Assembly: GCA_024231215.1 (NCBI GenBank)
Contig: JAAEQR010000099.1
Coordinates: 50,401-114,400, forward strand
Reading direction: 5' to 3'
Source: PVC group bacterium
GTDB taxonomy: Bacteria; Omnitrophota; Gorgyraeia; B26-G9
DNA length: 64,000 nucleotides
This document shows positions 4,326-50,388 of this stretch, piece after piece; the first letter of the stretch is position 1, and each line of letters opens with the position of its first letter. Position numbers and translations under genes: made by a program. The notes below the pieces were generated by a model. It was given only the letters and a program-made list of their open reading frames with translations, did not search any database and was not told the DNA's origin.

Positions 4326-4357
4326 TAATTTAATTTGACAAAAAAAGGAGTCGTATT

Positions 4358-9318: not shown

Positions 9319-9339
9319 GTAAAATCAATCCCTGTTTCT

Positions 9340-10815: not shown

Positions 10816-10830
10816 CTTTCCTTTATATTA

Positions 10831-11568
10831 TCAAAAAGTCAGGTTTTGTTTATCTTGACCCAGTTGCTGCACTGCCTTGCTGAATTTATTATGCAAACTG
10901 CCGTCAATAATAAATGAGCCAATCTCTATAATTAATCCGCCAATCATAGCTTCATCGATTACTTGTTCTATGGCTATTTTTTGACCTAGTTTTTCACTAA
11001 GCATTGTATTTAAACAATCTTTTTGTTGTTCTGTCAACGCGCGAATAGTAATTGCCTTTGCCTGCTCTATTTCAATCGGAAAACGTTCCTTGTCAATGCC
11101 CTTTATTATCTCAATAACTTCATCTATAAGAGAATGGTGCAATGTGTCTTGAGCATGAGAACTGAAGGTAAGACGCACAATCTCCAACGCATAACGCAAC
11201 GCCTGATGATCAAATTTTAGAAATAACTTATTTTTCAGTTTATCTACACGTTCTTTGCTTTCATTTATAATTTTATCTGCTTCTATCTGTCCTTTATCTT
11301 CTTGATTTTTCTGCAATATTTTGCCTATATTTACAGCTTCATCCGTAACGCGCTTTGCCTCCTGCTTAGCTTTTTCCACCCTCGCTGTGGCCTCTTCCTC
11401 TGCCTTAACCAATCCGGTCTTTAATTTCTCTTCAATGATCTCATTTTCTCTTTGCAATGATTGTAATCGCCGCAATGCAGTATTAACACTGCGCGCGTAA
11501 AAAAATCGCAAAGCAATCAGTATTGCAATAAATGTAACTATTTGAATTATAATTAATTGTGTGCCCAT
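10831..11568 (-). CDS. atpFH: F-type ATPase b subunit fused to a truncated delta (OSCP) C-terminal domain
   Basis: TM helix, long charged coiled coil, then an OSCP-like C-terminal motif GGLIIEIGSFIIDGSLHNKF. Start taken at MGTQ (11568), which abuts the c-subunit stop; the ORF-track start at 11631 is probably over-extended. Confidence 0.6.
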   Translation of the reverse strand: MGTQLIIIQIVTFIAILIALRFFYARSVNTALRRLQSLQRENEIIEEKLKTGLVKAEEEATARVEKAKQEAKRVTDEAVNIGKILQKNQEDKGQIEADKIINESKERVDKLKNKLFLKFDHQALRYALEIVRLTFSSHAQDTLHHSLIDEVIEIIKGIDKERFPIEIEQAKAITIRALTEQQKDCLNTMLSEKLGQKIAIEQVIDEAMIGGLIIEIGSFIIDGSLHNKFSKAVQQLGQDKQNLTF

Positions 11569-11569
11569 A

Positions 11570-11779
11570 TTATTTAAACAAGTTATACACCACAAGTAAC
11601 GCAAGTACTGCGATCGCTTCCGCGAATACAAACGCTGTGATCATAATTACAAAAATCTTAGGCGCCGCGCCTGGATTACGTCCTACTGCACGCACTGCAT
11701 TACGCCCAACCATTCCAATCACAAGTGCCGGGCCCATTGTACTTAAAAGCATAATTAAAGTTACGGTAAAATTCTGCAT
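11570..11779 (-). CDS. atpE: F-type ATPase c subunit (proteolipid)
   Basis: 69 aa two-helix hairpin. Polar loop GRNPGA. Conserved ion-binding Glu in helix 2 (FAEAIAVLAL). Confidence 0.8.
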   Translation of the reverse strand: MQNFTVTLIMLLSTMGPALVIGMVGRNAVRAVGRNPGAAPKIFVIMITAFVFAEAIAVLALLVVYNLFK

Positions 11780-11833
11780 AATTTATTTTTATCTACAAAC
11801 TATTGACCATGGACCATCGACTATTAACTATTT

Positions 11834-12061
11834 TCATCGTTCCACTAAAATCGTAAGCCGGTTATTTTCCATGCTCGCAACACCATCTGTCACGGAAAAA
11901 GAATCAGAGTCATTTATGGTAATAATGCCATTTTTTAGACGAGACAGGAAATTCTCATGCATGTCCAGTACGCAGAGCTCGCCCTCAACTGTGGGCAATA
12001 CTACCCTTACGGCCGATTTTTCATAAAGAATTTCTTTTGTATCTAAAATAGAAACATCCAT
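11834..12061 (-). CDS. atpC: F-type ATPase epsilon subunit, beta-sandwich domain only (75 aa)
   Basis: N-terminal beta-sandwich similarity (LPTVEGELCVLDMHENFLSRLKNGIITI). The usual C-terminal helical inhibitory hairpin is absent. The gene sits first in the operon rather than last. Confidence 0.6.
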   Translation of the reverse strand: MDVSILDTKEILYEKSAVRVVLPTVEGELCVLDMHENFLSRLKNGIITINDSDSFSVTDGVASMENNRLTILVER

Positions 12062-12290: not shown

Positions 12291-13106
12291 TTATTCCCCC
12301 TTATTCATGATATCTTCAATATCTTCAGCATTAATCTGCTGTTCTTCCTCTGCGGTATACTGTTCCGGAGCTAATTCTTCTTCTTTCGCCGCAGCATCTT
12401 CCTTAACTGAAGACTTCATCATCTGTGCCTGTCTTTGCCAGATAATATAAAGTGTCGTTGCCAATACCCCGAGAAACCCAACCACTGAAAAGAACACCTT
12501 CCAGATCGTAATTGCCGGCAAACGCTTCCCTTCGGTAAGAAAACTACGCGCTAATATCAAATCATTTTTCGCGGCTTCTAATAAATCAAGGTTTTCCCGG
12601 TAATTTGAAATATGCTGCTGGGGGTTTGCCGCGGAGAGGTTCTGTCTCTTAATGATCTTGTCTAGCTTTACTTCAATACTTTGTTTTAAAAACTGGGCGC
12701 GTTCCTCAAACTCAGTATTTTTAATAAAACTTATTGTCTTATTTATTTCTTTTCTTAAATTTTCGATCTCCGCCTCTGAAACCAGCCAGATATTTTTGAT
12801 TGTAACTTCGCGTTCAATTGTTTCTCCGGGAGCCAATTCGTATTCTCCAAAAACCTTATACGCCCCCTGCTGAGTATCATAAGTCAGGTTAAAATCACCT
12901 CTATCAATGATATCTTCCGGAGTAACTTCTTTCGGTAAATGCGCCTGTAATGTCATGCTCTGCGTATTTGTCTTCGACGGGTTAACCCCAAGAAGTTTTA
13001 GCGTAATTTTTGTTTGAACCGCATATACTGTAGCCGCAAAACAAAAAACACTAAGACACAACATCCCCCAAAACAACAGCTTCTTAAATCCATTTAATAC
13101 ATTCAT
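12291..13106 (-). CDS. Bitopic membrane protein of unknown function
   Basis: Signal-anchor N-terminus, periplasmic region of about 200 aa, a second TM helix, and an acidic cytoplasmic tail. Lies 17 nt downstream of the giant gene on the same strand. Confidence 0.6.
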   Translation of the reverse strand: MNVLNGFKKLLFWGMLCLSVFCFAATVYAVQTKITLKLLGVNPSKTNTQSMTLQAHLPKEVTPEDIIDRGDFNLTYDTQQGAYKVFGEYELAPGETIEREVTIKNIWLVSEAEIENLRKEINKTISFIKNTEFEERAQFLKQSIEVKLDKIIKRQNLSAANPQQHISNYRENLDLLEAAKNDLILARSFLTEGKRLPAITIWKVFFSVVGFLGVLATTLYIIWQRQAQMMKSSVKEDAAAKEEELAPEQYTAEEEQQINAEDIEDIMNKGE

Positions 13107-13122
13107 CCTTTATCCCCTTATG

Positions 13123-16100
13123 TTAAAACTCATACCAAACCTGACTCATCGGCTTATCACTGATATTCTCAATCATCTGATTGTTCAGCTCAAGCATTGC
13201 TTTCATTTCCTGCGTCTTATTTTTTAGATATTTTATATCTTTTTTCTTTTCTGCCGCCACTTCCAAGCGATTTTCTATTCCCACACTTTCCAGCTTTCCA
13301 AATTCTTTTATCTGAGAACCCATATCTGAAAGCTGTTTATAAATTATATTCAACTCTTTAGACATACCCGATCCCTGTTTTGCTTCGTTGAGAAAATCCT
13401 TGGCTATTCTGGTAAAAGATGTTTCAATCAATCCAACCTGATTATTCAAGATATCCACTATCCCGCCAATATCACTTAATCCAGAAGTCGCGCCTAAAAT
13501 TGCCGAGGTCTGGCCAGCGATATCGTCTACTGTATTACGAACAACTGTGATTGTCAAAGAATCAAGCGTACCCCGGGTTTCTTCCGAACATATGATCGTG
13601 TAATCACCAATCCCCCATGCCGAGTAAAACTTGACCGGATATTCATAGATACCCGTAGTCCCCATTTCCACCATGCTTCCCTTAATGATGCGCTGTACGT
13701 TCTTTACATCATACACATCTATTTTTGGAGACATCCCGGAATAAGTCTGATATCTTACATTTATCTCGTCCCCGCTTTTTGCCTGTTTTTCTCTGTTTAA
13801 AATCTTTGATTTCATGGTTGTCTGCAACTCATCTTCTGCCGCGGCTAAAGAACCTTCTAAACTTTCACGCGTAGCCGATAGTTCTTCTGTTAATGCTGTG
13901 GTTGTTTCTTCCATGGTCTCTGTAAGATTATCCGTTGCTTCTTCCAAGGTGCCTTCTAAGGAGTCCCGGGTATCTTCCAGTTCTGTGATCATCGATTCTG
14001 TTCCTTCTCCCACAGACTCCTCGATCTGCGCAACAGACGCGGCCAGTTGCGTCGCAGTTTGCGTAAAGAACTCGTATTGCAATATCTCTGAACCCACATC
14101 AATATTCGCACTAGATGTATAGTCTCTGCCTCGATAAAGCACTGTCAGTGTGGCCGGGTATACATACCCTGCTTCAAATCCCGTGCCAGGCAATGTAAGT
14201 GTATACATACCGTTCTCATTCGGAGCATTTGCTGAGACATTATTACGCACAGTTGTTCCATCCGGAGTATAAATACTCAACACTGCCGGCCCCATATCCG
14301 CACGTTCTAAGGCATTTGTTCCTACCAGTTTTCCTTTTCTCTGCAAAGAACCAACCGCACTTAAAGTATCACTTCCCGGGCTAAAACTGTATGTCAAAAT
14401 CGCTTCCCAGGTAACCTGCGCGGATGCTGAGTTTTCCAAATATATATTTACAATATAAGTGTCTGTCCCGGATTTCGGAACAACCCAGGTAACACTATTA
14501 TCGATAAAATTTGTCTTCGAGAGAAACGTTGTATACGTAGCATACGGATATGATGCTGAACGAGTAATAGCTGAATTAAGTCCGGAGTCATTCCATCCCG
14601 TACCCGGCTCATTTACATTCACATCCTGCAAATGCTGTAATGTATCATAATCCAAAATATTAAAAACAACCGAAGCATATACAATATTAAAAACCGCGTC
14701 ATTAACATCAAATACCGTAGAATCATCCGGATCTGAAACCCGAACCATAGCCTCAGTTGTCTGTGCATCCGGTAATATCCAAACATATGATCCAATATTA
14801 TCTACATTCGCCGCGATTAGATTCCAATTCAAACCATTATCCGTACTATAATCTAGTTTTATTTTTGCGATCGTTCCTCGAGTCTGCCACATGACTGTAT
14901 GATCTGATTTAGCAACCCAATCTTCATCACCATTCGGAACATTAATCGTAAACCCACCTCTTATCCGGAAAAATCCGGCCGATTGATTTGTTATCTCACT
15001 CCGATTACCGTCCGTAATACGCAGCTTCAACGTCGGACCGGTAAGAGCATCATCCGGAATATCCCAGGTATAAAGCCCGTCATTTGCTTCTCCCACGGCA
15101 ATTATCCTTCTTGTCGCAAAACCATCCCCGGACATATCAATAACCAGATTATCCGAAATAGATAAACCTTCCCAGGTCCAGGTTATTGTGGTCATATCTC
15201 CTAACACAAATTCTTCTCCGCCATCCGGAGCAGTAACATCAAATGTCGGGATCGGAATAATTCTAAAAAACTCGTCCGAGACATCTGTACTTACCGGACG
15301 ATTCCCGTCTGTGAGTTTAAATAAAGCATTATTAGTTACGTCATCCGGAACATCCCATGTATATTCCCCGTCATTCAACTCTCCTGATCCAATTACAAAA
15401 TAAGTAGAACCTCCATCAGGAGAATATTCTGCAACCAGATTATCGCTTATTGATCCCTCAGTAGTCCAAGTCGCCGGAGCCTGGTCTGCTACGGCCCAGA
15501 CTTCTCCTCCGTTGGGTGCAGTTATTGTAATTAACGGATCTGCTATAGCAAACACATCATCTGAAACATCTTCGTTCGAAGGCCTATCCGCATCAAAAAC
15601 CTTTACCAAACAAATGGCACTTACATCATCTGGAATTGTCCATGAATACGCGCCCATATTTGCCGCACCGGTTGTAATGTCCTGATATACAGTTCCTCCG
15701 TCAGATGAATATTGAACAGTTAAGTTATTGGATATCAACCCGCCGTTATCTTCCCATGTAACATCTTGTATGGTTCCTACTCGCCAAATCTCGCTACCGT
15801 TCGGCGTAAGAATAGTAAGCTGCGGTATTGGTAAAACTGTAAACATTCCGTCTGACCTGTCCCAAACTACCGGCCTGGTATTATCTGTTATTCTTACACG
15901 CATACTTGCGGAGACATCATTTGGAATCGTCCAATTATGGCTTCCGCTATTGGTTGTCGATCCAATTATTGTATTAACGTCTGAAATAAAATTATCTTTT
16001 GAATATTCAATAAGCAAGTCATTGCCCACGCTTCCGGTATTATCCCAGGTGATTATTTCTGCATCTGATACAGTCCAAAGTTCGCCGCCATTTGGCACCG

Positions 16101-19100
16101 TCACTCTAATCACCGGATACGCAATCGCAAACGGAACATCCGACATATCAGATATAGCCGGGGTGTCATTATCTGTAACTCTTATTTTTGCGGTAATTGA
16201 ATAATCATCCACCACAATCCAATCATATGTACCATCATTAGTTTCAAAGTTCGCAATTAAATTAATATCACTGCCAAAATTGTCTTTAGAATATTCAATG
16301 CGCAAGTTATCACTTACGCTTCCTAAAGAACCCCAGGTGATTTCCTGAGCCGTACCAATCGCCCAGCTTTCACCGCCATTAGGCGCAATAATATTTACAT
16401 ACGGCAGTCTAATCGCAAAAACAGAATCAGATTGATCTGTAGTCGCAATTCGTGTCGCGTCAAATATTCTGACCAAGCAATTGGTTGATAAGTCATTCGG
16501 TATTGTCCAAACATAATCTCCGTCATTTGCTTCTGCGCTGGACACAGTATTCCACGCTCCGCCTCCGTCAGAAGAATACTCTATAGTTAAGTCATCGCGA
16601 ATCGCTTCATCTGTATTGCCTTCGGATGTCCAATTAATTCCATGCGTGGTTCCTACAATCCATTCTTCTGCACCATTCGGGGAAGTTACTGTAATTGTCG
16701 GCGCAACAATACTAAACACAGCATCCGACATATCCCAAACTGTAGCCCTGGCATTATCTGTAAGTCTTACCAATACCTGGTCGGAAAGATCATCTGCCAC
16801 ATCCCAGGTGTATGTCTGATCATTTGGCTCTCCTGTTGCAATCGTATTCCAAGCCACCCCGCCGTTGCTGGAATATTCCAGCAACAGATCATTTGTAACC
16901 GCACCCAAGAATGTCCAGGTAATTTCGTAATCGCCTGTTGCATACCATGTCTCTGCCCCATTAGGAGAAGTGATTGTTACCGCAGGAATTGTGATTTGGA
17001 AAACATCGTTTGAAACATCAACAACCAATGCGTCATTCTCATCCATGACCCGAATAAGCGCTTCTATTGTTTCTACATCTGCTACTGTCCACGTATATAA
17101 ACCATCATTAGTTTGCTGGTTGCTAATTAGATTCCACGATCCGCCATTATCATCCGAGTAATAAATCGCCATCTCATAATAATCAGCGCCGCCGGATTCT
17201 AATTTTTGGCCATAAGATTCCCAGGTGATATCATACTCTTCCCCAATGGCCAATACTTCTCCGCCGTTTGGATCAAGCATCGTGACTATTGGATAAGGAA
17301 TAACCGTAAATGCTTCAGATATCCCTGTAACCTGAGTCCATGCATTATCCGTAATTTGTACCTGTACTATATTTGAATCTATGGCGTCCGGAATCGTCCA
17401 TGCATATATACCATCACAAGCTTCATTATCCGCGATAGTATTAAAAATTAATCCATCTGTTGTATATTCAAACAGTAAATCATCTGTTACCGTTCCAAAA
17501 ATCGTCCAAGTAATATCATGGATATCTGCAGACACCCATGTCAATCCGGATACCGGGGATGTAATCGTAATATAAGGAAAAACAATCGAGAAATCAGCAT
17601 CTGACATATCCCAGATAATGCTCTGGGTATCTCTGCCGCCAAGAATCGAATCTTCTCTTATTCTTACTTTCACAGTTGTAGAAATATCTTCCGGCACTGT
17701 CCAGTCATATGTCCCGCTAATCGTATCATTTGCATCCGAACCACTAGGAGTTCCTATACTTGTCGTAATAATCGCAGTTTCCGTACTAAAATTATCTGTT
17801 GAATAATCAATAATCACATTATTCACAAACTGCGTAGAATTGGTTGCCCAATTGACTTCATATTGATTACCAACAATCCATTGTTCCGCACCATTCGGTG
17901 CCCCAACGATTAATATTGGCTGTGGTACAATGGCCCAAACCGCGTCTGATTCATCTACCACATCGGTATTATCCGCATCGTAGATTTTCAACAATACTTC
18001 ATCTGATGGATCATTTGCTATTGTCCAGTTAAAATTCCCTGTATTTGGACGCTGGGTAGAAGCAGCTATCCAGGTTGATCCATTGTCCGGAGAATATTCT
18101 ATGGTCAGATTATCATTTACTGTTCCAGTTGAAGCCCAGGTAATCGTATGCTGTCTGCCTGCTTCCCAGATGTCTCCTCCGTTCGGAGAAGTAATGATCA
18201 AGCCCATGATTTGGAAAATAGCATCCGATTCATCGCTAACATTTGGAAATTCTACCGAGCTCACCCGGACCAAAGCATTAGGCGATGCGCTATCCGGCAC
18301 TGTCCAGCCATGACTACCGTCATTAGCTGTCGAAGCAATCACTTCATTCCAACTGCTTCCGGTATCCGCAGAGTATTCTATTTGTACATTTGAAGCTGCT
18401 CCATCAACGCCCTCTGATGTCCAGGTAATAGTATGGGACGATGCAACCGCCCATTGTTCTGCTCCATCAGGAGAGCTAACATTGATTTCCGCTCGGATAT
18501 AATCAATGTCTATACTATCTATCACCGGGGTGCTCTCCCCGTATGAATATAAGGTTGTTTTATACTGAAGATATCGATCATCCAAACAATCTTCATTTAA
18601 GGTATTGATTGCTTCTGCGCCAGCAGAGTCAAAATAATAACTCGGCGGACTCGCTAAGGTAATTGTTACTTCATCCAATTCCGGGGTATTTATTCCGTCA
18701 TCAGTATGTAAATACGCGCGGTAATAAAAATCTCCATCCGGAAATTGTGATTGAAAATTAGTTAAGTTTGCATTAATCTCTGCCGCGGTATTAGTATTCG
18801 CATAACCAAAATCAACCTTTGCCCAACTACTTCCATTATGCCAATACCAATTATATCCGTCCGCGGAAACTTGATAGCCTACTTCTGTCCCTGCGGGTTC
18901 AGTCACAACATCCTGGAAATTAACCAGATTCCCTTCGTAAAAAACACCGATTATCGGCTGAATTACAGGGTTATCATCATAGTAATTAGTAAGGCTGTGC
19001 GTGTTGGCCGGGTGTACATACGTATCTTCAGCGTCCTGAGCCATCCCGACAGTATTATTTTCTAAAATTGCCCATTCATCCGTATGGGCCTGCTCACCGC

Positions 19101-22100
19101 TATCGTGGTGCACTATATGCGGCTTTAAATTGCTCTCCGAAGAATATGAAGATTCATAAAGCAATGTCCATGTGCTAGAATCGACAATGCGATAGTAATA
19201 GTCTGCTCCCATGCTCTTTAACACAATGCGAATTTCATACCATGTACCCGGAGAATAACTACCCACACCTTGCCTATAGCTACCATCTTCATAAATATGA
19301 AAATTCCCGTTATCAAAATATATCGCATGCGGCATATCCTGATAACTTGCACCTCCAGCATTACTTTTCCAGCCGATCATTGTCCGAGAACCAGAATCAG
19401 CTTTTATTTTCGCGCAAAACTCTATGTTTGATCTAGCATAGAAATTATTAGTATTAAGATAACAATCCCAGTCATCACTGTTATTCTGTAATGTAACATA
19501 TTCATTCTGCGTTACTGTTCCTCCTCCATACATAAACGTTGATCCCGCTATTGTTGTGCCATGGAAATTGTGAACAAACACAGCGATTATGCCTTTGGCG
19601 CTCGCGCTTAGATCACTTGCTCCGGAAGCCCCAGGATTTCCATAATACAAATATATCGTTTTATCAGCTAGGGCGGAAAAAGAAGGTATTTTTGTGTAAA
19701 CCATAGCTTTTTTTGAGACAAAATCAAAGCTGTCAAGATAGTAATTTAATACTGTAGTATCGTCCGAATCTACAATCCTAATATCTCCTCCGTCATTTTT
19801 TACATTACTCCAAAACTCATGCCAGTTGTCCAGCTTTAACTCTACCAGCTGATTAGTTATATCTGCCGTTGTAAAATTGGTTACTGTAATCGGAATTTTA
19901 TACGCCCACGCTGCTAACCCTGGACATGTGCCAGCTTCTTCCTCCATAGAAAAATATGTTTTTATATACTTATTTAGAGTTAATGGCATACGTTCTGTAG
20001 CAGATACATACTGTATACAGCTTCCATATCTTGGCCCATATTTTTCCACATAAGCCTCTCCCGCGTTAAGCCCCTTGCGGCCAATCATAAGATATTTAGA
20101 ACGATAGGCTAGCCCGCTCAACAGCGCATCGCTTGCCCCAAAATTCTTAAGCTCATTTTTCAAAGAGGTGTTATTATATATATTATTTCTCGGTTCATCA
20201 TAAGTGGTAACAATAATTAATGTATCATCGGGCAATCCCGCTAAATACGCTTCCATTGCGTCTGCTTGCGCGCTATCATTGTGACAATCATATTGCATTG
20301 ATTCCACCCAATTTAGATCAGCATCCAATCGGGTAACTGCCCAGCTTATAGTTGTTGTATGCCTTAAGGTTCCATCAACATATACATAATGATCTCTTGG
20401 CCCATCATCGCTTCCAGCTGACGAAATATTAAGATCCCCCACATTAATAATAGTATCGTTGCTATCCGATGCCGCACTAGCTGAGCCATATAATAAGTGG
20501 ATAGTTTTTATCTCATCTATTGCAATTGTTGGAATTTCAACAAAAATAACCGCAGTTTTTTCTGCATAATTAAACAACTCCAAACAATACTCTAAAGTTT
20601 GCGTACCATCATGAAATCTAATATCATCTCCGTCAGTCTGGACATTAGCCCAGAATTGAAGGTTTGAAAAAGGTATCTCTACTTTGACCAAAACATCTGT
20701 TCCCGCTTCTCCACCTGTATTATCTAAAACAATTTTATTAGCATAAGAAAAATCCGGCAACCCGGCAAATAAATCTCCATCTTCAAACTCCACGCCACCC
20801 TTAGAAGGATATTCCGCAGCACTGTTGCCGTAATACAAATAGATAGTTTCTGAAGATTCCGCGGCAATAAACGGAATTTTTGCGCACACTTCCGCCTCTG
20901 TATTAGCATAATCAAATGTTTTCAAAAATGATTCTAAAACTGTGCTATCGTCAGAATCAACTACACGCACATCTTCCCCATCAATTTTTACGTTCTTCCA
21001 AAACTCATGCCAGTTATCTATCTTTATATTAATAATTTCATCGGTTAAATCAGTTAGCCCGGAATTTGTTATTGTAATAGGTAACCTGTACTGCCAGCCT
21101 GAAAGAGCAGGGGAGCTGGCTAGTTCTTGTGCAACTGAAAAACAAGCAAAAGCCCCTCCTCCTAAAACAATATTATCTACCCCAAAACTCTCATCATAAT
21201 CCCCTCCGGAACTTAAGTTAGACGTGAATCTAAGCGTTAAATCTCCACCTGGGTGATCAAATGTAACTTTATATGCCCTGCCAAGATAATCACTTCCTGA
21301 GCGTGTAGTTATATTACCTATATTTTGAGCTGCGGTAAACTGATACGTATTCCACACCAAGCCACCATTCGCATAAAGATAGCCTCGTTCACCGTCCCAG
21401 GAATCCATCCAATAATAATCAAAAGTCACCTCATAACTACCCGCCGGGGCATTGCTTTTCGTATACATTGTATACTGCCCCTCTCCGCCATACTTTCCCA
21501 TCATTCCATGCCCGCCAGATGTATATGTCTCCGGATCAGAACTGCCCACATTATCTGTCCACCCAGTATAATTAGGATAAGACCATCTATTGGCAATCGT
21601 TGAATCACTCTCTGAAATTGCCGAAACAGAACCATAAAGCACGTAAATTGTTTGTATGGAATCCGCTGAGAGCAACGGTATTTTAACATCGATGCTTATA
21701 CTTTTGCTGGCATAATCAAATGTACTTAAGTAATACGATAATTTTATACTCCCATCATAAAATCTGATGTCACTACCCTCTGATCGTACATTGTCCCAAA
21801 AATGAGTATTTGAAGGGAATATCTTAAGTGATACCAATTCATCTGTTTTCTCCACACCGCCCGTATTATCAATAATTACCGCTTGCGCATGTTTAAAGTC
21901 TGCTAACTCCAACTGAATTTTTGCGGTTCCGGCACTTACTTCTATTTTGCTGGAATAGGCATAATCTGCCTGCATAGAATAATCATTACCTAAAACCTGA
22001 GCATCCGCAATCCCCAGCCATTCTGTCCAGGAAATATTATCTGCCGAGGTTCTAAGCTGTAATCGAGCATCTGTACCTAGAGGAAGTGTCTCCTGCCAGG

Positions 22101-25100
22101 TAAGATCCAAAAGTCTGCTTGTAGCAAAAGTAGTATCATAAACAGAAGATATCAGCATCTGAGAAATCGGGTATTTCTCCCACTCAATTCGCATCTCTTC
22201 GATTGCTGGGCTTTCCAATAAATTATCGGTTGAAAAAGTTATTTTGTATTGCAAATATTTTGCTGTGTCCGGACACGCCGCAGATGTGCTCAAATCCGCT
22301 CCATTAGCCACATCAGCAATATTAAACCATTCCGAGGTATCAGATAAATCTGTTTCATTTCCCGCGCGAAAAGATACAGTCGCGCATTGGATATCATTAA
22401 AATCCCAGCTAATATTGCCCCAGCCGGAATGATTGCCAATCTCTTTTATTTTTGATGTATAATTTCCAAAACAAAACGCATAATATTTAGCAAATTTTCT
22501 TCCTCTGCCCTGGGTCGCGTAAAAATATTCTCCGTCCGCCCAAATCAAAGTCCCGGGATGCCTGATATTAAAAGAAGCAGGGGTAAGCTCTTCCCATAAA
22601 TTATTCTCCACATCATATCGCAGAAAAACATATGAACCAGACCAGTCCCACCAAGACGAACCATGAATCAAATATAAATAATTTCCAAACCCCGGATAAA
22701 TAGCTTCCGAATGCCCCGTATGAAGAGGCACCGGAGCCGGAGTACGCACACTCCAACTACCGCTTCCTATATGATATCTGTATAAATTTGATGAACGATT
22801 TCCAGTCATCACGTACAAATAATCATCGCTTCCCGGATATACAACCTGCCCCCCATATCCTACATATTGCGGCGTATCATTAAGCACAGACCAGGAATCA
22901 TCCGCTAAATCATATTGCCAAAATGTATTTGATTCGCCTCTTAATATATACAAGTAATCACCATAATGACATATGCTATTCCCAACTTCAAATGGATCCG
23001 GCGGGGGAGATAATTCTATCCATAGATCCGCAGCAACATCATACCGGTAAAAACTTGCCAGGCTATTGCCTCCGGTAACATAAATTGAAGGCTGTCCCTG
23101 GTATTCAACAACTCTTATTGTTGTATCTGTTTGATCAAATGTTAGGGGAGGATCAGCTAATGTAGACCAAGTATTAGCTATTGTACTATATCTGTGAAAA
23201 GCATCTCTGTTTAAATAATAAATATACCCTTTATACCCGGCAAATGAGCAATCTTCATTCATGTCCTCGGGTAAAAATGACGGCAAATCATATGTATTTT
23301 CTGTCACATGATAGCGCATAAAATAACTTCCCCATTGATAATTAAAAATATAAAACCAGGGCTTGCCTACAGTCACTATAGACGCCTCATAACTACTTGT
23401 TGTGATCGGTAATTTTGCCAACTGTTCCCACAAATCTTGCGTAATAGAATAACGGTATAAATATTCGCTTGTTGCTCTCGGGATACTGTAAATATAATCT
23501 CCGGATCCCGGATAAAACAAAACGCCCCCGGAACCGGTTGTTTCCACTGTCTCTCCCATGCCAGTTTCATCTCCTACCTGTGTCCGGCTTAGCCAGGTAT
23601 CTACGCTAGGATCATATTCATGAAAAGTTGACTCATCATCTCCGGGCATTAAATATACCTTGCCCTGCGCATATACTAACCCATTAAGCCAGTCATCATG
23701 CGCCCTCGGAGCATCCGCAAAAGATGACCAATAATCTGAACTATTATAAACAACAAAATTTGTCGAACCCCATCCACCCATCATAAATATCCGGTCATTA
23801 TCATTATCCGCGGCCACTTCCGCGCCGCGCCAAAAACGCAAAGATGATTCCGCGCATTCAATCCAGGTTTTGGTTGTAATATCATATCGATACATCTCGG
23901 TCGAACCACGACCCTTAGTAATATAAATAGAATTCGTCGCTGTCAAATACGAAGCTTTTGCCCCAGGAGCCAGCACAAAAGGCACCCGGATTAAATCTGT
24001 CCATCGATTTTGATCCGCATTATATACCCAAAAATGAGAAGGGCAACTAGACTCATCTCCATGAATAACATAAATATTATTATTAGCATCGGCCACCGTC
24101 ATCCCCATTTGATTATCATGGCGATCTATAACCGGCTCATTCCATTGTCCTGTAGCTGGATCATACTTCCAAAAATTATTATATCCATAATTAGCAATAG
24201 CAAATATCGCTGTGTCTGTTCCGGTAATACAACTCCTTGCCTGATGAAATGGTGTCGGCTCAAGAATATCCCAAGCATCTGTATCCATGTTATAGCGTAC
24301 AAACCCATAACTATATCCAATGCTATCCCAATCGGCCGACAATCCATATACATAGTTATTTGCGGCGCTTGTATGTGCGATGGAAGGACCTGCGTCCATA
24401 TGAAATCTGAAATTATTTGGAGCATCAGTTACTTTTGTCCAAACCCCTAAGTTATTACCATCGCTATCTAAGTCATCCTGATCACTAATATCATCTTCTA
24501 TGGGACCATACTTATAAAAATTCCGGCTCCATTGGCCACGACAAGCATAGATATAAGTATATCCATCAGATTCGGTATAATTAGAATAAACCATAAAACT
24601 TCCATCCATACTATCTGTTGTAGAATCCATTGATTCCCACGTTTCACCAGCAACATCATACCGATAAAAATCATATGTATCTGTGCCGCGCAAAGCATAC
24701 ATATAATCCGTACCACCAACGTTTATCCCGATCACCCCAGAACCATAATCAACATTCTGCGGAAAATCAGTTAATGTTTCCCATGCATCACTGCCCGGAG
24801 TCTGCGAAACATCATAACGCCAAAAATCATCAGACTCAGCCCCTCTTAAGCAATAAACATACCCGTTCAAATACCCTAATCTATTCCCTCCATGTCTAAT
24901 ACCACTTGGAGCATGTGCTAATTGTTCCCATTCATTATTCGAGATTGAATACCTAAAAAACGTGGAACTATCCTCTGCCGGCACATAATAAATATAATCA
25001 CCGATCCCCGGATAACAAATATTTATACCATACCCCCTGTCTGTCGGCGCTTGAACTAATGTACTCCATTTCCCATTAACAATATCGTATCTCCATGGAC

Positions 25101-26421
25101 GAGTATAATTTCTCCCAGAAAAAAACTGTAATTCTTCGCCTTCACTCGGTCCGCCTAAATCGGGATCATACATAATAAATTTGCATTCTGCTGTTGGGGC
25201 CGGAAGATTCGGTAATTTTTCCCAGACCGGGCTCCCTGTCAAAGGTCCGTAGCGATAAAAACCTCTATCCGTGCGATAAGTACCTAGCCTTGTCCGAACA
25301 TCATACATCCCTGCGGCATAAATATAATCGCCAGAACCCGGATACCAGATATCAGACCCACGCCAAAATTCAGTATCATAACCATAGAGATCAGGAAGAT
25401 CCGCAATCCCGGTATCCCAGGAATTAGTACTAATCTGATATCTCCAAAATGTCTCATAATGCCTTCCCGGCGTACAATAAATATAATCCGCTCCTGTTTT
25501 ATACGCTAAAGCTCCGCCTTGCTCTACGTTATCCGGGGTGGAAGCTCTGTCTCTCCAAACTCCTCCGCCAATATCCGGATTGTATTCGAAAAAATTACGA
25601 TCATCGCCGCCGCCTAAAGCAAACAATCTTCCCGGGGTAGTCGCATGTGTTAATTCATTGCCTGTATGCGCAAGGTCCGATCCAAGATTAATTCCTTTGG
25701 TTAAAGACAGAAACTGGCGCCATTCGCCCGGAGGTGGTGATTCCATCGGAAATGCGGTATTGCCCGGATCGGGATCCGCAACATCCGAAGGCAAATAAAA
25801 ATATGTTTCTTTTGACCCGGATCCACGCAACGCGTATATATATTGGCCATCATTGGTGATTGTTGCTCCCGCGGCTACAGCTACAGACATTGGCGCTAAA
25901 AATTCCCATACTTGATTTGTAATATGAAAACGGCCGAATTGTTTCCCATCGCCAGAAGCAAACAAACAATATATATAATTACCCATTCGAGTGTAAGTAG
26001 AAAATGTGCCTGGATCAGGAATAGACGGTAAGTTCAGCCATTCGCCCAAGCCGGAAGCAAAAGAATCGGTCACGCTGGAGGTTAACTCTACCTGGGCAGC
26101 ATTGCCTGTCCCATTTATAACTATATCTTTCAATGTCCCATCAGAGAAATCCGTGTCTGTAGTGTCCGTAATCATAAACGTATTCGCAGATAAAGATAGA
26201 GCTCCGCCTGAAGTCAGAATATTGCTGTCCCGGGAAGTATATTCAGCCCAGCTGCTCTGGTCTCCGGGGTGGCTTGCGTCATTAGCACTTGAGCCTCCGG
26301 ACCAATCGGTTTGATTAAACGTACCGGCTTCCTGAACATACCCTGTCTGTGCGAGCATAAAAACAATAAGCAGAGATGTAAGAAACGCCGCAATTATCTT
26401 GTAATATTCACGCGCTTTCAT
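13123..26421 (-). CDS. Giant secreted multidomain protein (4432 aa)
   Basis: Single uninterrupted 13.3-kb ORF with a signal peptide. Kelch-type beta-propeller blades run from aa 140 to 1310. A DUF2341-like, LamG/ConA-like and ILEI-like lectin region runs from aa 1515 to 2450. About 13 tandem Ig-fold repeats of 95 aa each run from aa 2645 to 3915. An acidic coiled coil follows, then a distinct C-terminal domain. Confidence 0.9.
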   Translation of the reverse strand: MKAREYYKIIAAFLTSLLIVFMLAQTGYVQEAGTFNQTDWSGGSSANDASHPGDQSSWAEYTSRDSNILTSGGALSLSANTFMITDTTDTDFSDGTLKDIVINGTGNAAQVELTSSVTDSFASGLGEWLNLPSIPDPGTFSTYTRMGNYIYCLFASGDGKQFGRFHITNQVWEFLAPMSVAVAAGATITNDGQYIYALRGSGSKETYFYLPSDVADPDPGNTAFPMESPPPGEWRQFLSLTKGINLGSDLAHTGNELTHATTPGRLFALGGGDDRNFFEYNPDIGGGVWRDRASTPDNVEQGGALAYKTGADYIYCTPGRHYETFWRYQISTNSWDTGIADLPDLYGYDTEFWRGSDIWYPGSGDYIYAAGMYDVRTRLGTYRTDRGFYRYGPLTGSPVWEKLPNLPAPTAECKFIMYDPDLGGPSEGEELQFFSGRNYTRPWRYDIVNGKWSTLVQAPTDRGYGINICYPGIGDYIYYVPAEDSSTFFRYSISNNEWEQLAHAPSGIRHGGNRLGYLNGYVYCLRGAESDDFWRYDVSQTPGSDAWETLTDFPQNVDYGSGVIGINVGGTDYMYALRGTDTYDFYRYDVAGETWESMDSTTDSMDGSFMVYSNYTESDGYTYIYACRGQWSRNFYKYGPIEDDISDQDDLDSDGNNLGVWTKVTDAPNNFRFHMDAGPSIAHTSAANNYVYGLSADWDSIGYSYGFVRYNMDTDAWDILEPTPFHQARSCITGTDTAIFAIANYGYNNFWKYDPATGQWNEPVIDRHDNQMGMTVADANNNIYVIHGDESSCPSHFWVYNADQNRWTDLIRVPFVLAPGAKASYLTATNSIYITKGRGSTEMYRYDITTKTWIECAESSLRFWRGAEVAADNDNDRIFMMGGWGSTNFVVYNSSDYWSSFADAPRAHDDWLNGLVYAQGKVYLMPGDDESTFHEYDPSVDTWLSRTQVGDETGMGETVETTGSGGVLFYPGSGDYIYSIPRATSEYLYRYSITQDLWEQLAKLPITTSSYEASIVTVGKPWFYIFNYQWGSYFMRYHVTENTYDLPSFLPEDMNEDCSFAGYKGYIYYLNRDAFHRYSTIANTWSTLADPPLTFDQTDTTIRVVEYQGQPSIYVTGGNSLASFYRYDVAADLWIELSPPPDPFEVGNSICHYGDYLYILRGESNTFWQYDLADDSWSVLNDTPQYVGYGGQVVYPGSDDYLYVMTGNRSSNLYRYHIGSGSWSVRTPAPVPLHTGHSEAIYPGFGNYLYLIHGSSWWDWSGSYVFLRYDVENNLWEELTPASFNIRHPGTLIWADGEYFYATQGRGRKFAKYYAFCFGNYTSKIKEIGNHSGWGNISWDFNDIQCATVSFRAGNETDLSDTSEWFNIADVANGADLSTSAACPDTAKYLQYKITFSTDNLLESPAIEEMRIEWEKYPISQMLISSVYDTTFATSRLLDLTWQETLPLGTDARLQLRTSADNISWTEWLGIADAQVLGNDYSMQADYAYSSKIEVSAGTAKIQLELADFKHAQAVIIDNTGGVEKTDELVSLKIFPSNTHFWDNVRSEGSDIRFYDGSIKLSYYLSTFDYASKSISIDVKIPLLSADSIQTIYVLYGSVSAISESDSTIANRWSYPNYTGWTDNVGSSDPETYTSGGHGMMGKYGGEGQYTMYTKSNAPAGSYEVTFDYYWMDSWDGERGYLYANGGLVWNTYQFTAAQNIGNITTRSGSDYLGRAYKVTFDHPGGDLTLRFTSNLSSGGDYDESFGVDNIVLGGGAFACFSVAQELASSPALSGWQYRLPITITNSGLTDLTDEIINIKIDNWHEFWKNVKIDGEDVRVVDSDDSTVLESFLKTFDYANTEAEVCAKIPFIAAESSETIYLYYGNSAAEYPSKGGVEFEDGDLFAGLPDFSYANKIVLDNTGGEAGTDVLVKVEIPFSNLQFWANVQTDGDDIRFHDGTQTLEYCLELFNYAEKTAVIFVEIPTIAIDEIKTIHLLYGSASAASDSNDTIINVGDLNISSAGSDDGPRDHYVYVDGTLRHTTTISWAVTRLDADLNWVESMQYDCHNDSAQADAMEAYLAGLPDDTLIIVTTYDEPRNNIYNNTSLKNELKNFGASDALLSGLAYRSKYLMIGRKGLNAGEAYVEKYGPRYGSCIQYVSATERMPLTLNKYIKTYFSMEEEAGTCPGLAAWAYKIPITVTNFTTADITNQLVELKLDNWHEFWSNVKNDGGDIRIVDSDDTTVLNYYLDSFDFVSKKAMVYTKIPSFSALADKTIYLYYGNPGASGASDLSASAKGIIAVFVHNFHGTTIAGSTFMYGGGTVTQNEYVTLQNNSDDWDCYLNTNNFYARSNIEFCAKIKADSGSRTMIGWKSNAGGASYQDMPHAIYFDNGNFHIYEDGSYRQGVGSYSPGTWYEIRIVLKSMGADYYYRIVDSSTWTLLYESSYSSESNLKPHIVHHDSGEQAHTDEWAILENNTVGMAQDAEDTYVHPANTHSLTNYYDDNPVIQPIIGVFYEGNLVNFQDVVTEPAGTEVGYQVSADGYNWYWHNGSSWAKVDFGYANTNTAAEINANLTNFQSQFPDGDFYYRAYLHTDDGINTPELDEVTITLASPPSYYFDSAGAEAINTLNEDCLDDRYLQYKTTLYSYGESTPVIDSIDIDYIRAEINVSSPDGAEQWAVASSHTITWTSEGVDGAASNVQIEYSADTGSSWNEVIASTANDGSHGWTVPDSASPNALVRVSSVEFPNVSDESDAIFQIMGLIITSPNGGDIWEAGRQHTITWASTGTVNDNLTIEYSPDNGSTWIAASTQRPNTGNFNWTIANDPSDEVLLKIYDADNTDVVDESDAVWAIVPQPILIVGAPNGAEQWIVGNQYEVNWATNSTQFVNNVIIDYSTDNFSTETAIITTSIGTPSGSDANDTISGTYDWTVPEDISTTVKVRIREDSILGGRDTQSIIWDMSDADFSIVFPYITITSPVSGLTWVSADIHDITWTIFGTVTDDLLFEYTTDGLIFNTIADNEACDGIYAWTIPDAIDSNIVQVQITDNAWTQVTGISEAFTVIPYPIVTMLDPNGGEVLAIGEEYDITWESYGQKLESGGADYYEMAIYYSDDNGGSWNLISNQQTNDGLYTWTVADVETIEALIRVMDENDALVVDVSNDVFQITIPAVTITSPNGAETWYATGDYEITWTFLGAVTNDLLLEYSSNGGVAWNTIATGEPNDQTYTWDVADDLSDQVLVRLTDNARATVWDMSDAVFSIVAPTITVTSPNGAEEWIVGTTHGINWTSEGNTDEAIRDDLTIEYSSDGGGAWNTVSSAEANDGDYVWTIPNDLSTNCLVRIFDATRIATTDQSDSVFAIRLPYVNIIAPNGGESWAIGTAQEITWGSLGSVSDNLRIEYSKDNFGSDINLIANFETNDGTYDWIVVDDYSITAKIRVTDNDTPAISDMSDVPFAIAYPVIRVTVPNGGELWTVSDAEIITWDNTGSVGNDLLIEYSKDNFISDVNTIIGSTTNSGSHNWTIPNDVSASMRVRITDNTRPVVWDRSDGMFTVLPIPQLTILTPNGSEIWRVGTIQDVTWEDNGGLISNNLTVQYSSDGGTVYQDITTGAANMGAYSWTIPDDVSAICLVKVFDADRPSNEDVSDDVFAIADPLITITAPNGGEVWAVADQAPATWTTEGSISDNLVAEYSPDGGSTYFVIGSGELNDGEYTWDVPDDVTNNALFKLTDGNRPVSTDVSDEFFRIIPIPTFDVTAPDGGEEFVLGDMTTITWTWEGLSISDNLVIDMSGDGFATRRIIAVGEANDGLYTWDIPDDALTGPTLKLRITDGNRSEITNQSAGFFRIRGGFTINVPNGDEDWVAKSDHTVMWQTRGTIAKIKLDYSTDNGLNWNLIAANVDNIGSYVWILPDAQTTEAMVRVSDPDDSTVFDVNDAVFNIVYASVVFNILDYDTLQHLQDVNVNEPGTGWNDSGLNSAITRSASYPYATYTTFLSKTNFIDNSVTWVVPKSGTDTYIVNIYLENSASAQVTWEAILTYSFSPGSDTLSAVGSLQRKGKLVGTNALERADMGPAVLSIYTPDGTTVRNNVSANAPNENGMYTLTLPGTGFEAGYVYPATLTVLYRGRDYTSSANIDVGSEILQYEFFTQTATQLAASVAQIEESVGEGTESMITELEDTRDSLEGTLEEATDNLTETMEETTTALTEELSATRESLEGSLAAAEDELQTTMKSKILNREKQAKSGDEINVRYQTYSGMSPKIDVYDVKNVQRIIKGSMVEMGTTGIYEYPVKFYSAWGIGDYTIICSEETRGTLDSLTITVVRNTVDDIAGQTSAILGATSGLSDIGGIVDILNNQVGLIETSFTRIAKDFLNEAKQGSGMSKELNIIYKQLSDMGSQIKEFGKLESVGIENRLEVAAEKKKDIKYLKNKTQEMKAMLELNNQMIENISDKPMSQVWYEF

Positions 26422-26505: not shown

Positions 26506-27429
26506 TTATTCTTCGATTTTTGCTTCTAGTTCTTTTATCCTCTTTTTTTCTATTTCCATGCGTTTTTGCATAGCTCTATATGAAACCATGTCTGCCGCAT
26601 ATCTCTCTTGTAGATTTTGTTTTAGAACTTTTGTTTCTGTCTTTATTTTCTGCTCAAACTTCATTCTTTCTGTTTCTTGCGTAATCACCAGTTTTTTCTG
26701 TAAATGCATATTCACAGAATATAAAGCACCCACGAGCAAAAGCATCACCCCAACAGCCACGCCACTCATAACACGCTTCTTGTGCTGCTCTTCAGGTTCT
26801 TCTTCGGGATTATCTTCTTTTGCAGCTTCTATTGCTGCATCTATTTTCTTTTTAAACTCTTTGGATCCAATAACTCTTTTGCGGCCCAAAGCATTACTTA
26901 AACTGGCAATTTCATCCTTGCCCATTATTTCGACAAAATCAGCATAACTGCGTCCGTCTAAACTCTCGAGTCCTTCTGTTTTTTCCTCAGCAATGTTGAC
27001 CGTATCCGCTAAAAGCTCATTTTTTACATATAAGGCATAGCTGCTAAATGGGTTTTCCTGGGAATGCATGCAGGCAATCACTTTTCCTAGCCAAGGCATT
27101 TTTTCAATTAATACACAGCGATACCGTTCGGTAAATAAATGTCCGGTACGATCATATTTTTTATTAAAATATTTAATGTAAGAAGAGTTCAGGTCATGCA
27201 TGATTTGCGAAATAGTTACACCTTCAACCAGTTCTATTAATAAATTAAGCTGGGATGAGTCTAAAACATAAGCAAATAATTTAAATCCATGTTGTTCTTT
27301 GTATTTTTTCAAAAGATCCACATAAGCTTGAAAATCTTCATTGTCTTTAAAAATATTCCGATTATTGTCTCCTCGAGAGGTAGTATGATATAAGGCTCCT
27401 TCAATATTGATTCTCGGCATCCTTGGCAT
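26506..27429 (-). CDS. Inactivated IS200-like Y1-transposase-fold domain fused to a TM helix and a C-terminal coiled coil
   Basis: The N-terminal 150 aa align to IS200/RAYT TnpA. The strand-1 YH motif is kept (ALYHTTSRG) and so is the catalytic-Tyr region (FTERYRCV). The HuH histidines are replaced (SQLNLLIEL where HIHMLLEI is expected). A TM helix (GVAVGVMLLLVGALYSV) and a K/E-rich coiled coil follow. Start assigned at the internal Met preceded by an AAAGGAG RBS. Confidence 0.65.
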   Translation of the reverse strand: MPRMPRINIEGALYHTTSRGDNNRNIFKDNEDFQAYVDLLKKYKEQHGFKLFAYVLDSSQLNLLIELVEGVTISQIMHDLNSSYIKYFNKKYDRTGHLFTERYRCVLIEKMPWLGKVIACMHSQENPFSSYALYVKNELLADTVNIAEEKTEGLESLDGRSYADFVEIMGKDEIASLSNALGRKRVIGSKEFKKKIDAAIEAAKEDNPEEEPEEQHKKRVMSGVAVGVMLLLVGALYSVNMHLQKKLVITQETERMKFEQKIKTETKVLKQNLQERYAADMVSYRAMQKRMEIEKKRIKELEAKIEE

Positions 27430-27525
27430 TATGCAGCTCCTTTCGCTGGTAATTTCATCAGTCAATAGCTAATAGTCTATGGTTTTGATTTTTCTTTGTA
27501 ATGCTATTAACCCTAGACTTCTTCC

Positions 27526-27770: not shown

Positions 27771-28058
27771 TTATTTAGCCGCCGTTTTTTCAAGTTTTCT
27801 GCGACGTAATGCACTTTGTGCAACCTCTTGAGCTAAAGCTTCATACTCAGCTATCTGCTGCTCATATTCTTTGTACATTTCATCAATAGCTAAAGTTTCC
27901 TGCTTTGCCATTTCAATATCGTATTTAGCCTCTTCTCCCTGGGCAATATTTTGTGTCCATAATCCGGCAAAAACAATCATTACGCACAAAACAAAAATAC
28001 TGGCACCGAGAAACCCCATGACTATCTTTAAAATTGTATTTGATATACTTGCTTTCAC
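27771..28058 (-). CDS. Small bitopic membrane protein with coiled coil
   Basis: N-terminal TM helix and a Q/E/A-rich coiled coil. Overlaps the upstream gene by 4 nt. Confidence 0.5.
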   Translation of the reverse strand: MKASISNTILKIVMGFLGASIFVLCVMIVFAGLWTQNIAQGEEAKYDIEMAKQETLAIDEMYKEYEQQIAEYEALAQEVAQSALRRRKLEKTAAK

Positions 28059-29808: not shown

Positions 29809-29830
29809 CTCCTTTCGGCCTTGCCGCTTA

Positions 29831-31609: not shown

Positions 31610-31611
31610 CA

Positions 31612-46688: not shown

Positions 46689-46717
46689 TTTGTTCGCGGA
46701 TCCCTTCGGGTTTCTTC

Positions 46718-47824: not shown

Positions 47825-47919
47825 CTTATCCCCCTTTTATTAACAATTTGCACCTATTATTATTCTAATATATAAATTTACAAAAATAGTAGTCGTATTA
47901 GTAGTATAGCCTGTTAATA

Positions 47920-47928
47920 TGTGGATAA
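47920..47928. promoter_or_regulatory. Consensus DnaA box (TGTGGATAA) in the dnaN-dnaA spacer
   Basis: Exact 9-mer match on the reverse orientation. Confidence 0.5.
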
Positions 47929-47965
47929 CCAGGTTAATGGTTTAAAAACAATAGCGTTACCACCT

Positions 47966-49775: not shown

Positions 49776-49776
49776 C

Positions 49777-50357: not shown

Positions 50358-50388
50358 AGCAATATAACGATCGGAAAACAAACAAACC

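Follow-up and report, generated by a model that had tools for sequence, protein, structure and literature searches.

A giant gene and its downstream partner

The DNA analysed here, referred to below as the window, is a 64,000-nt stretch of the contig JAAEQR010000099.1 (positions 50,401 to 114,400; assembly GCA_024231215.1) from an Omnitrophota bacterium of the lineage B26-G9. It carries a gene for a giant protein of 4432 amino acids (aa) at 13123-26421, directly followed by a gene for a 271-aa protein at 12291-13106. This pair, hereafter the giant and its partner, probably represents an exported adhesin and its membrane anchor. All coordinates are positions in the window unless another locus is named, and all features lie on its minus strand unless stated otherwise. 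The giant gene is a single intact open reading frame (ORF), with a strong ribosome-binding site (RBS), GGGAGGAG, ahead of its ATG. An uninterrupted frame of 13.3 kb cannot have arisen by chance in DNA of 40% GC, and its GC content and GC skew are continuous with those of the neighbouring genes. An earlier interpretation made from the DNA letters (the sequence-only reading) had placed the partner 17 nt downstream of the giant. The succession of the two ORFs was confirmed from the ORFs of the window, whereas the spacer is 16 nt long; a purine-rich, RBS-like sequence, AAGGGGAUAAAGG, precedes the ATG of the partner.

The giant begins with MKAREYYK followed by 16 hydrophobic residues, which form its sole hydrophobic segment. 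This basic n-region and hydrophobic core agree with the signal peptide proposed earlier (predicted to be of the Sec type, aa 1 to ~31; 26329-26421). The adjoining N-terminal domain (aa 32-140; 26002-26328) is characterized by FxQTDWSGG ... TDTDFxxGT motifs and was assigned to no Pfam family. It is followed by a region of Kelch blades corresponding to approximately four propellers (aa 147-1316; 22474-25983), identified by the Pfam Kelch families and a self-built profile. The profile detected 23 blades at i-E<0.01 and two to three weak ones (range 23-26), close to the approximately 25 expected, and Kelch proteins were the only relatives found in a PDB sequence search with the giant. The middle region (aa 1317-2643; 18493-22473) contains four DUF2341 modules, an ILEI domain and beta-rich segments without family assignment. 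The DUF2341 modules (PF10102, E=3.3e-50) are located at aa 1509-1597, 1776-1865, 1891-1979 and 2172-2261 (21631-21897, 20827-21096, 20485-20751 and 19639-19908), and the ILEI domain (Pfam, E=1e-12) at aa 2039-2117 (20071-20307); both had been recognized in the sequence-only reading.

The region of tandem Ig-like repeats of ~95 aa (aa 2644-3915; 14677-18492), which matches Pfam Kre9_KNH, had been estimated to contain about 13 units. The self-built profile detected exactly 13, each at E<1e-29. A carboxypeptidase-regulatory-like domain, which had also been proposed, received no support from Pfam or PDB sequence searches. Further downstream, the acidic segment previously noted as T/E-rich was defined by its composition as a helical linker (aa 4112-4204; 13810-14088) with 19 E and 17 T per 92 residues and a weak Apolipoprotein match.

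A conserved C-terminal module of the giants

The last part of the giant forms a C-terminal module (aa 3955-4432; 13126-14559), which consists of a beta-rich part, the E/T-rich linker, an Ig-like sandwich and a helical region ending in ...SQVWYEF. This ~480-aa module is the only part that aligns with the giant of another locus, L002 (29% identity, E=5e-62). The L002 giant is 5477 aa long and contains NHL/Vgb_lyase propellers in place of the Kelch and DUF2341 regions, and its partner is 47% identical to that of the window. The module combination of the window's giant, originally regarded as unusual, is thus not very unusual in the phylum, because relatives swap their passenger domains freely. 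In an alignment of the C-termini of giants (A1), the module is well conserved and ends in ...NKPVTQTWYEY[KR]. In a profile search of 1.84 billion representatives, dozens of proteins of 2000-5700 aa were found to end with the full module. The profile matched 717 representatives below 1e-30, a count partly inflated by one Ig repeat that sat inside the profile.

The ~110-aa FxQTDWSGG domain, in turn, heads many giants of the family and was found at 68 metagenome loci (L084-L151), many of which have neither a Kelch region nor secretin genes in their context.

Sequence and profile searches revealed no Pfam family and no PDB relative for the C-terminal module, and profile searches of PDB sequences with the partner family likewise yielded nothing. 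In an AlphaFold2 (AF2) model, the last ~230 aa of the giant fold into an Ig-like sandwich and helices, in keeping with the distinct C-terminal domain noted earlier. The suggestion that the giant carries no PEP-CTERM, LPXTG, SLH or type IX secretion system (T9SS) tail also held: none of these families matched the whole giant, and none matched its last 323 aa at E<=1. This search could have detected a PEP-CTERM signal, since two other proteins of the window gave PEP-CTERM matches. As for GlyGly-CTERM, no curated sorting-signal profile of Pfam or NCBIfam matches the C-terminus of the giant. These profile comparisons support the view that the C-terminus does not correspond to a known sorting signal.

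Families indicative of other export routes were also not among the Pfam matches of the giant. No HemolysinCabind or type I secretion system (T1SS) family was found; the signal is of the Sec type, and the neighbouring genes encode a secretin, TPR proteins and ATPase subunits. The propeller of PilY1/PilC (Pfam Neisseria_PilC) and the autotransporter barrel and TPS domain families were not detected either, and the partner is an alpha-helical single-pass protein.

The partner as a probable membrane anchor

The partner contains a signal peptide, an Ig-like sandwich, a three-helix bundle, a transmembrane (TM) helix and an acidic tail. It had been described as having two TM helices and an acidic tail. 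The tail was confirmed, whereas the first of the two hydrophobic segments is a cleavable-type signal peptide (...ATVYA/VQTK), and the mature partner is therefore predicted to be single-pass. In an alignment of its homologues (A2), an AxA-type signal peptide is present in all split forms and missing from those fused to a giant. It is followed by a beta-rich domain (...AVNPS...YLPxEVKPED...YDTQQGSYYV...), a helical region, the TM helix and a charged tail. The TM helix is strikingly conserved, with W202, L212, L215, W223 and Q226 being invariant or nearly so, and WQRQxK follows directly after it, consistent with the positive-inside rule. The cytoplasmic tail is short, variable and charged and contains no domain. 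An AF2 model of the partner (pLDDT 87) shows the Ig-like sandwich, three-helix bundle and TM helix (pLDDT 84-87 across models). In a deep clade, the partners are ~440 aa long, the periplasmic Ig-plus-helix unit being duplicated and the tail still short.

We identified at least 136 homologues of the partner, all of Omnitrophota type; one hypothetical protein, from a MAG (metagenome-assembled genome) labelled 'PVC group bacterium', matches it with 100% identity. By scanning one genome per GTDB species with the partner, we obtained 92 relatives, of which 80 loci, nearly all from Omnitrophota, were kept for comparison. In nearly all of the 80 loci the partner comes after a very long ORF, which in most of them continues without a stop as far as the examined flank extends (up to >3300 aa), and the C-terminal module of the window's giant was detected upstream of the partner in 53. 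Together with the fusions described below, this supports the earlier proposal that the 271-aa protein is a dedicated partner of the giant. Several MAGs contain a second giant-anchor pair without ATPase genes (L029/L048, L046, L057 and L058). These second copies, along with the Patescibacteria-labelled loci without ATPase genes described at the end of this section, indicate that the pair is a functional unit of its own.

In approximately one-tenth of the relatives, the two genes form a single ORF, so that the anchor in these is the giant's own C-terminal end. Nine natural in-frame fusions were found (P0166, P0154, P0156, P0212, P0234, P0191, P0233, P0271 and P0042), and all share the same junction, ...QTW[YF]E[YF]-[RG]S-VVLKALVINPS..., followed by the partner domain, the TM helix and the tail. 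Among the complete top matches, ~8 are fused and ~75 split (about 10% of relatives fused), and seven of the 80 GTDB species loci contain a clear fusion. A sequencing error in a fused gene can be rejected as the origin of the split form, because the partner and more than 100 of its homologues each have a signal peptide of their own. Physical association of the giant with the partner is thus well supported by genetics.

The partner was also considered as a possible paralogue of the C-terminus of the giant. This was rejected, because BLASTP detected nothing and hhalign gave a probability of 0.5%; despite these negative results, MAFFT repeatedly superposed the Ig-plus-helix units of the two.

In several loci labelled as Patescibacteria (Falkowbacteria, Kaiserbacteria and Paceibacterota), LamG/Ig-rich proteins have the same anchor unit joined to their end (L062, 5528-11191; L065, 8450-11152; L064; L060). 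Two of these anchor proteins have a C-terminal SH3_3 domain after the TM helix, and no ATPase genes are present nearby. These loci could reflect either a true spread beyond Omnitrophota or mis-binning.

Conservation of the surrounding gene cluster

The pair is embedded in a set of genes on the same strand. Upstream of the giant are, in order, the genes for a GGDEF protein, a 187-aa protein with a weak GspC-like match, a secretin (29831-31624), two TPR/coiled-coil proteins (28708-29808 and 28055-28711, the former with the coiled coil), a 95-aa TM protein and a 319-aa protein (26506-27465). The secretin and TPR genes were identified by Pfam and constitute the upstream outer-membrane part of the cluster (28055-31624). 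The partner is followed by 230 nt with a promoter-like site, the atp genes, a gene for a PilM-PilN fusion (Pfam PilM_2 and PilN; 5643-7052) and, at the end of the cluster, a gene for another 187-aa protein without family assignment (5074-5637). Neither the two 187-aa proteins nor the 95-aa protein gave a usable match in relaxed Pfam scans.

The 319-aa protein, encoded directly upstream of the giant, contains a degenerate IS200/REP-Tyr-transposase-like domain, a TM helix and a coiled coil. Its matches to Pfam Y1_Tnp and NCBIfam REP_Tyr_transpos are below cut-off, and its HUH motif is replaced by QLN. Homologues of this Y1-like protein are encoded immediately upstream of related giants in nine metagenome loci, and it is therefore not a mobile element. 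A GC-rich hairpin is located between the 319-aa gene and the giant.

The genes upstream of giants in metagenome contigs were searched for with a narrowed alignment of the N-terminal domain, a broader one being too diverse. A protein search with the N-terminal 420 aa of the giant returned generic Kelch fragments only and was uninformative on upstream synteny. In the contigs obtained with the narrowed alignment, TPR genes were found upstream of related giants in nine loci and secretin genes in four (L092, L096, L142 and L149).

Conservation is more extensive on the downstream side. Genes for the ATPase alpha/beta subunits lie within 6 kb of the partner in 51 of the 59 loci with at least 6 kb of downstream sequence (median distance 2.2 kb). 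This linkage is kept in the deep clade, although the order there is partner-alpha-c-b/delta-gamma-beta. The sequence-only reading had named in advance, as its test, the conserved pairing of the giant with the partner, secretin or atp genes in other genomes, and the ATPase linkage and the four upstream secretins bear it out. The ATPase as a chance neighbour is excluded by the linkage, which is not in itself proof of a functional link. GspE is encoded downstream of the partner in 45 of the 54 loci with at least 9.5 kb of downstream sequence; in relatives, GspF and then PilMN follow GspE, and in most of them GspE (with an MshEN domain) and GspF sit between atpD and pilMN.

Two further genes are frequently associated with the pair in relatives. 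A gene for an exported HExxH protein of the Peptidase_MA_2 family follows the partner in 40 of the 73 informative loci, including second copies without an ATPase; examples with a signal peptide are located in L002 (11291-12154), L003 (3038-3877) and L029 (10696-11505), and in the deep clade the gene lies ~9 kb downstream, after GspF. One possible role of this protein is to process the giant or to release it. An RR-GGDEF gene follows the partner in 28 of the 80 loci.

This gene content raises the question of whether the giant is a substrate that is released through the secretin by a machine of the type II secretion system (T2SS) or type IV pilus (T4P) type, the 271-aa protein acting as a loading factor, chaperone or transient tether and, in many relatives, the adjacent HExxH protease cutting the giant free. 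The upstream secretin, TPR and weakly GspC-like proteins, the downstream GspE/GspF of relatives, the frequent protease gene and the association of giant Omnitrophota proteins with T2SS-like loci reported by West-Roberts et al. are all consistent with release. However, the in-frame fusions make the giant TM-anchored, which fits permanent or until-cleaved tethering better than a chaperone; the protease gene is present neither in the window nor in the closest relative; and relatives labelled as candidate phyla radiation (CPR) retain the anchor without a secretin or an ATPase nearby. We therefore consider release unlikely and favour retention of the giant at the membrane by its partner.

At locus L046, a diversity-generating retroelement (bAvd and reverse transcriptase; 305-2572) is located directly upstream of the second-copy giant. 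It includes a TR/VR-like pair of 128 nt (450-577 and 1315-1442) with 87% identity, and the variable copy sits in an ORF upstream of the giant, outside the giant itself. A bAvd-like gene is also present inside the atp cluster of L003 (5688-6059).

Divergent F-type ATPase genes

The ATPase genes (7078-12061) were assigned to the F type by Pfam and NCBIfam, their orthologues being annotated as ATP-synt_DE_N and ATP-synt_C. The cluster encodes, in order, epsilon (11834-12061), c (11570-11779), a fused b/delta (10831-11631), alpha (9340-10815), gamma (8464-9318) and beta (7078-8463). The epsilon subunit is short (75 aa) and consists of the N-terminal domain only. The Walker A sequence of alpha is GDRQTGRT, and beta has GGAACGKS and no DELSEED, whereas the c subunit retains its ion-binding glutamate. 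No a subunit was found in the ATPase locus, either in the window or in the loci of relatives. The atpA/atpD genes (7078-10815) directly adjoin the PilM-PilN gene, and the atp genes are 18 kb away from the secretin gene.

A related combination is known from the gliding machinery of Mycoplasma mobile, in which an F1-derived G1-ATPase is associated with the giant membrane-anchored proteins Gli521 and Gli349 that bind host glycans (PMC11864180). The two systems share an ATPase cluster with giants and a b/delta fusion, which has also been proposed for GliD. They differ in that the bacterium of the window is a diderm, its c subunit contains the carboxylate and its anchor has no cytoplasmic domain. 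The likeness is architectural only.

By analogy, the giant and its partner might act as a 'leg' that transmits force in a machine for motility or attachment, with the adjacent divergent F-type ATPase, the pilus motor or both as its drive. Several observations are compatible with this: the pair-ATPase linkage persists across deep clades despite the rearranged atp order, the ATPase is divergent in the features listed above (the motifs of alpha and beta, the short epsilon, the b/delta fusion and the lack of an a subunit in the locus), the TM helix of the anchor is unusually conserved, and the M. mobile model includes giant membrane proteins as crank and leg. On the other hand, the cytoplasmic tail of the anchor is short, variable and without a domain and thus offers no obvious handle for the ATPase. 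Second copies of the pair and the CPR-labelled relatives have no adjacent ATPase, and the conserved glutamate of the c subunit suggests an ordinary ion-coupled enzyme with an a subunit encoded elsewhere. In addition, alpha and beta score 440-480 bits against canonical F1 and only 348 bits against the beta subunit of the M. mobile G1-ATPase, and a conserved gene order does not by itself demonstrate coupling. Force transmission by the pair is thus improbable in our view. There is also little chance, as we see it, that the pair supplies the output element still to be found for the 'symbiotic' F-type ATPase/T4aP (type IVa pilus) locus of Omnitrophota, as a membrane-anchored leg or tether with its conserved TM helix coupling inside the membrane to the ATPase or to the pilus platform. 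That such an output element would be a diderm counterpart of the ATPase-driven gliding legs of M. mobile, operating with an ATPase without an a subunit in its locus, is likewise doubtful.

Proposed function of the giant and its anchor

We consider it probable that the giant is a Sec-exported, lectin-rich adhesin with which the T4aP/ATPase cluster achieves attachment, and that a dedicated type-I anchor, in some relatives fused to the giant, holds it at the cytoplasmic membrane. The four Kelch propellers, the DUF2341, jelly-roll and ILEI modules and the 13 Ig-like domains, which would form a stalk, would constitute a variable passenger, mounted on the conserved ~480-aa C-terminal module. The 271-aa product of the neighbouring gene, a predicted type-I membrane protein with a short charged cytoplasmic tail, would keep this module on the outer side of the cytoplasmic membrane; in the genome of the window, the anchor would have been split off and equipped with its own signal peptide. 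In composite, the conserved Omnitrophota cluster encodes a secretin, TPR proteins, in some cases the Y1-like protein, the giant, the anchor, in some cases an exported HExxH protease and a GGDEF regulator, the divergent F-type ATPase, GspE/GspF and PilMN. The pair would most likely give this apparatus its attachment function through binding of glycans on a host, prey or surface, with the passenger reaching beyond the envelope, possibly via the secretin.

Several observations weigh against this proposal. A surface role in a diderm would require a putative outer-membrane route, because the anchor is predicted to sit in the cytoplasmic membrane. The lectin-like nature of several segments of the giant was not confirmed: for the two LamG/ConA-like folds of the sequence-only reading, Pfam and PDB sequence searches of aa 1640-1800 and 2290-2470 gave no significant match, although an orthologue in locus L001 (48-68% identical) has Laminin_G_3 on record. 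Parts of the composite cluster are also missing from the window: GspE and GspF are not encoded in its 64 kb, pilMN directly following atpD; the Peptidase_MA_2 and RR-GGDEF genes of relatives are absent, the protease gene also from the closest relative; and a scan of the whole window for the canonical prepilin motif identified no ORF.

The manner in which the giant and the anchor are joined is a further weak point. We modelled a fusion-like construct that imitates the natural fusions, consisting of aa 4205-4432 of the giant and the mature partner (AF2, pLDDT 84). In this model, the last residues of the giant form a strand that is hairpinned to the first strand of the partner and lies inside the partner sandwich, with moderate confidence for the junction strand (pLDDT ~64-88). 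In a control with swapped order, in which the last 41 residues of the giant were joined via the partner's own tail, the terminus of the giant was helical (pLDDT <65) and did not dock onto the anchor. Strand complementation in trans was considered as the mode of non-covalent attachment in split forms and is not claimed here, because the control failed to reproduce the docking.

In another explanation, the giant is an envelope or periplasmic scaffold and not an adhesin that faces outwards; it would serve either as a coat or as a spacer that separates the cytoplasmic membrane, the wall and the outer membrane. Anchoring at the cytoplasmic membrane, the lack of a demonstrated outer-membrane route and the proposal that giant proteins of Velamenicoccus form a coat would suit such a function. 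However, free exchange of passenger domains and a content of lectin, propeller and Ig domains are typically seen in surface proteins that bind ligands and are subject to diversifying pressure, and not in a structural spacer. Moreover, at our estimate of ~4 nm per Ig domain, 13 Ig-like repeats and ~20 other domains would far exceed the periplasm. A scaffold is therefore very improbable, and an adhesin tethered by its C-terminal module remains the interpretation we prefer.

Relationship to known systems

Seymour et al. (2023, Nat Microbiol, PMC10066038) described a non-respiratory F-type ATPase beside T4aP genes in all classes of Omnitrophota, with ATPase and T4aP genes within 10 kb of each other on 57 of 66 contigs. 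They likened the ATPase to the type-2/3 ATPases of Mycoplasma and proposed a role in attachment or motility on host cells, whereas giant ORFs (>20 kb) were handled as a separate trait. The atp genes of the window likewise lie within 10 kb of PilMN. The adjacent rotary ATPase, which the sequence-only reading had found suggestive, is a conserved neighbour, and its linkage to pilus genes was already published. What distinguishes the present locus is the protein of 2000-5700 aa and its anchor directly upstream of the ATPase, which are not mentioned in the available text of that study.

West-Roberts et al. (2023, 10.1101/2023.11.21.568195) linked giants of >30,000 aa (Archaeovorin and dockerin types) to T2SS-like loci and downstream PilZ genes, and a 2026 preprint (10.64898/2026.06.07.730766) repeated the observation of secretion and pilus genes in the flanks. 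These giants are from the same phylum, are rich in adhesin and carbohydrate-related domains, including ILEI/POMGnT1-stem-like and LamG-type domains, and are encoded beside genes of the secretin/GspE/GspF type. However, they have numerous TM segments as well as SecA-like domains, and PilZ genes come after them, whereas the giant of the window has 4432 aa, a signal peptide as its only hydrophobic segment, a conserved C-terminal module of its own and no SecA or helicase domain (Pfam), and is followed by an anchor and an ATPase.

The sequence-only reading had also pointed to the fusion of DUF2341 domains to MotA/TolQ/ExbB-type stators as an indication of energy coupling. Large proteins encoded in archaeal T4P loci (arCOG03508/MJ1470 type; Makarova et al. 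2016, PMC4858521) contain DUF2341, as do Patescibacteria proteins of >4000 aa (PMC11809585), and on MotA-like proteins it is described as one of several accessory domains with an undefined role. The stator argument is therefore weak and not supported, since the domain is typical of large proteins in pilus loci. The giant shares with those proteins its large size, its location in a T4P/T2SS-type cluster, its occurrence in a small-celled, host-dependent lineage and its proposed role as an adhesin. It differs from them in having no class III (prepilin) signal, and neither the C-terminal module nor the anchor is described in the available portions of those reports.

Retention of giant adhesins is also known from other bacteria. 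LapA of Pseudomonas is a T1SS substrate that is retained in its outer-membrane channel by an N-terminal plug. Like the LapA-LapG-LapD system, the present one would involve a giant, repetitive, envelope-retained adhesin, and many relatives have adjacent genes for an exported protease and a cyclic di-GMP enzyme. Unlike LapA, the giant has a Sec signal and a C-terminal tether at the inner membrane, and the protease is of the HExxH MA-clan type and not LapG. C-terminal sorting signals with a TM helix are recognized in the PEP-CTERM/exosortase system and in the GlyGly-CTERM/rhombosortase system of T2SS substrates. The anchor resembles these signals in that an exported protein ends with a conserved motif, a TM helix and a basic cluster, in this order, and PEP-CTERM proteins are present in the genome. 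It is distinct from them in comprising a folded ectodomain of 200 aa in addition to the helix and in being able to occur as a separate polypeptide; it matches no sorting-signal profile, and no sortase-like enzyme is encoded nearby. In the accessible parts of the literature on Omnitrophota giants, ATPase/T4aP loci and DUF2341 proteins, we found no description of the C-terminal module, of the anchor or of their fixed place before the ATPase.

Other features of the window

On the plus strand, positions 1665-4981 encode two proteins. The first, of 886 aa, is a GH2-like glycosidase that also contains a carboxypeptidase-regulatory-like domain and has a dockerin at its C-terminus; the second, of 207 aa, is a cohesin protein with a PEP-CTERM end. 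These two look like a cohesin-dockerin pair for the display of a glycosidase on the cell surface. The chromosomal origin region is located at 46383-56831, with dnaA, dnaN, DciA, gyrB and gyrA on the minus strand and yidC, mnmG, parA and parB on the plus strand. The GC skew changes its sign near 49-50 kb, and dnaA, dnaN, gyrB and gyrA lie ~20-35 kb from the giant locus.

Significance

Omnitrophota are abundant, ultra-small and probably host-dependent bacteria that have never been grown alone, and so far their long proteins have been treated as one trait and their odd ATPase/pilus loci as another. Our analysis ties both traits together by placing a defined family of adhesin-like proteins of 2000-5700 aa at a fixed position in the ATPase/pilus locus. 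It also identifies how these giants would be retained by the cell, namely through a conserved C-terminal module and an anchor that is either split or fused. Either the anchor gene or the ...NKPVTQTWYEY terminus can serve as a simple sequence handle with which to detect them in fragmented metagenomes. If the adjacency proves to be mere conserved gene order, the result would be a useful but ordinary description of a protein family. By naming a candidate surface component, these findings make the published idea of ATPase-driven attachment or motility in Omnitrophota testable.

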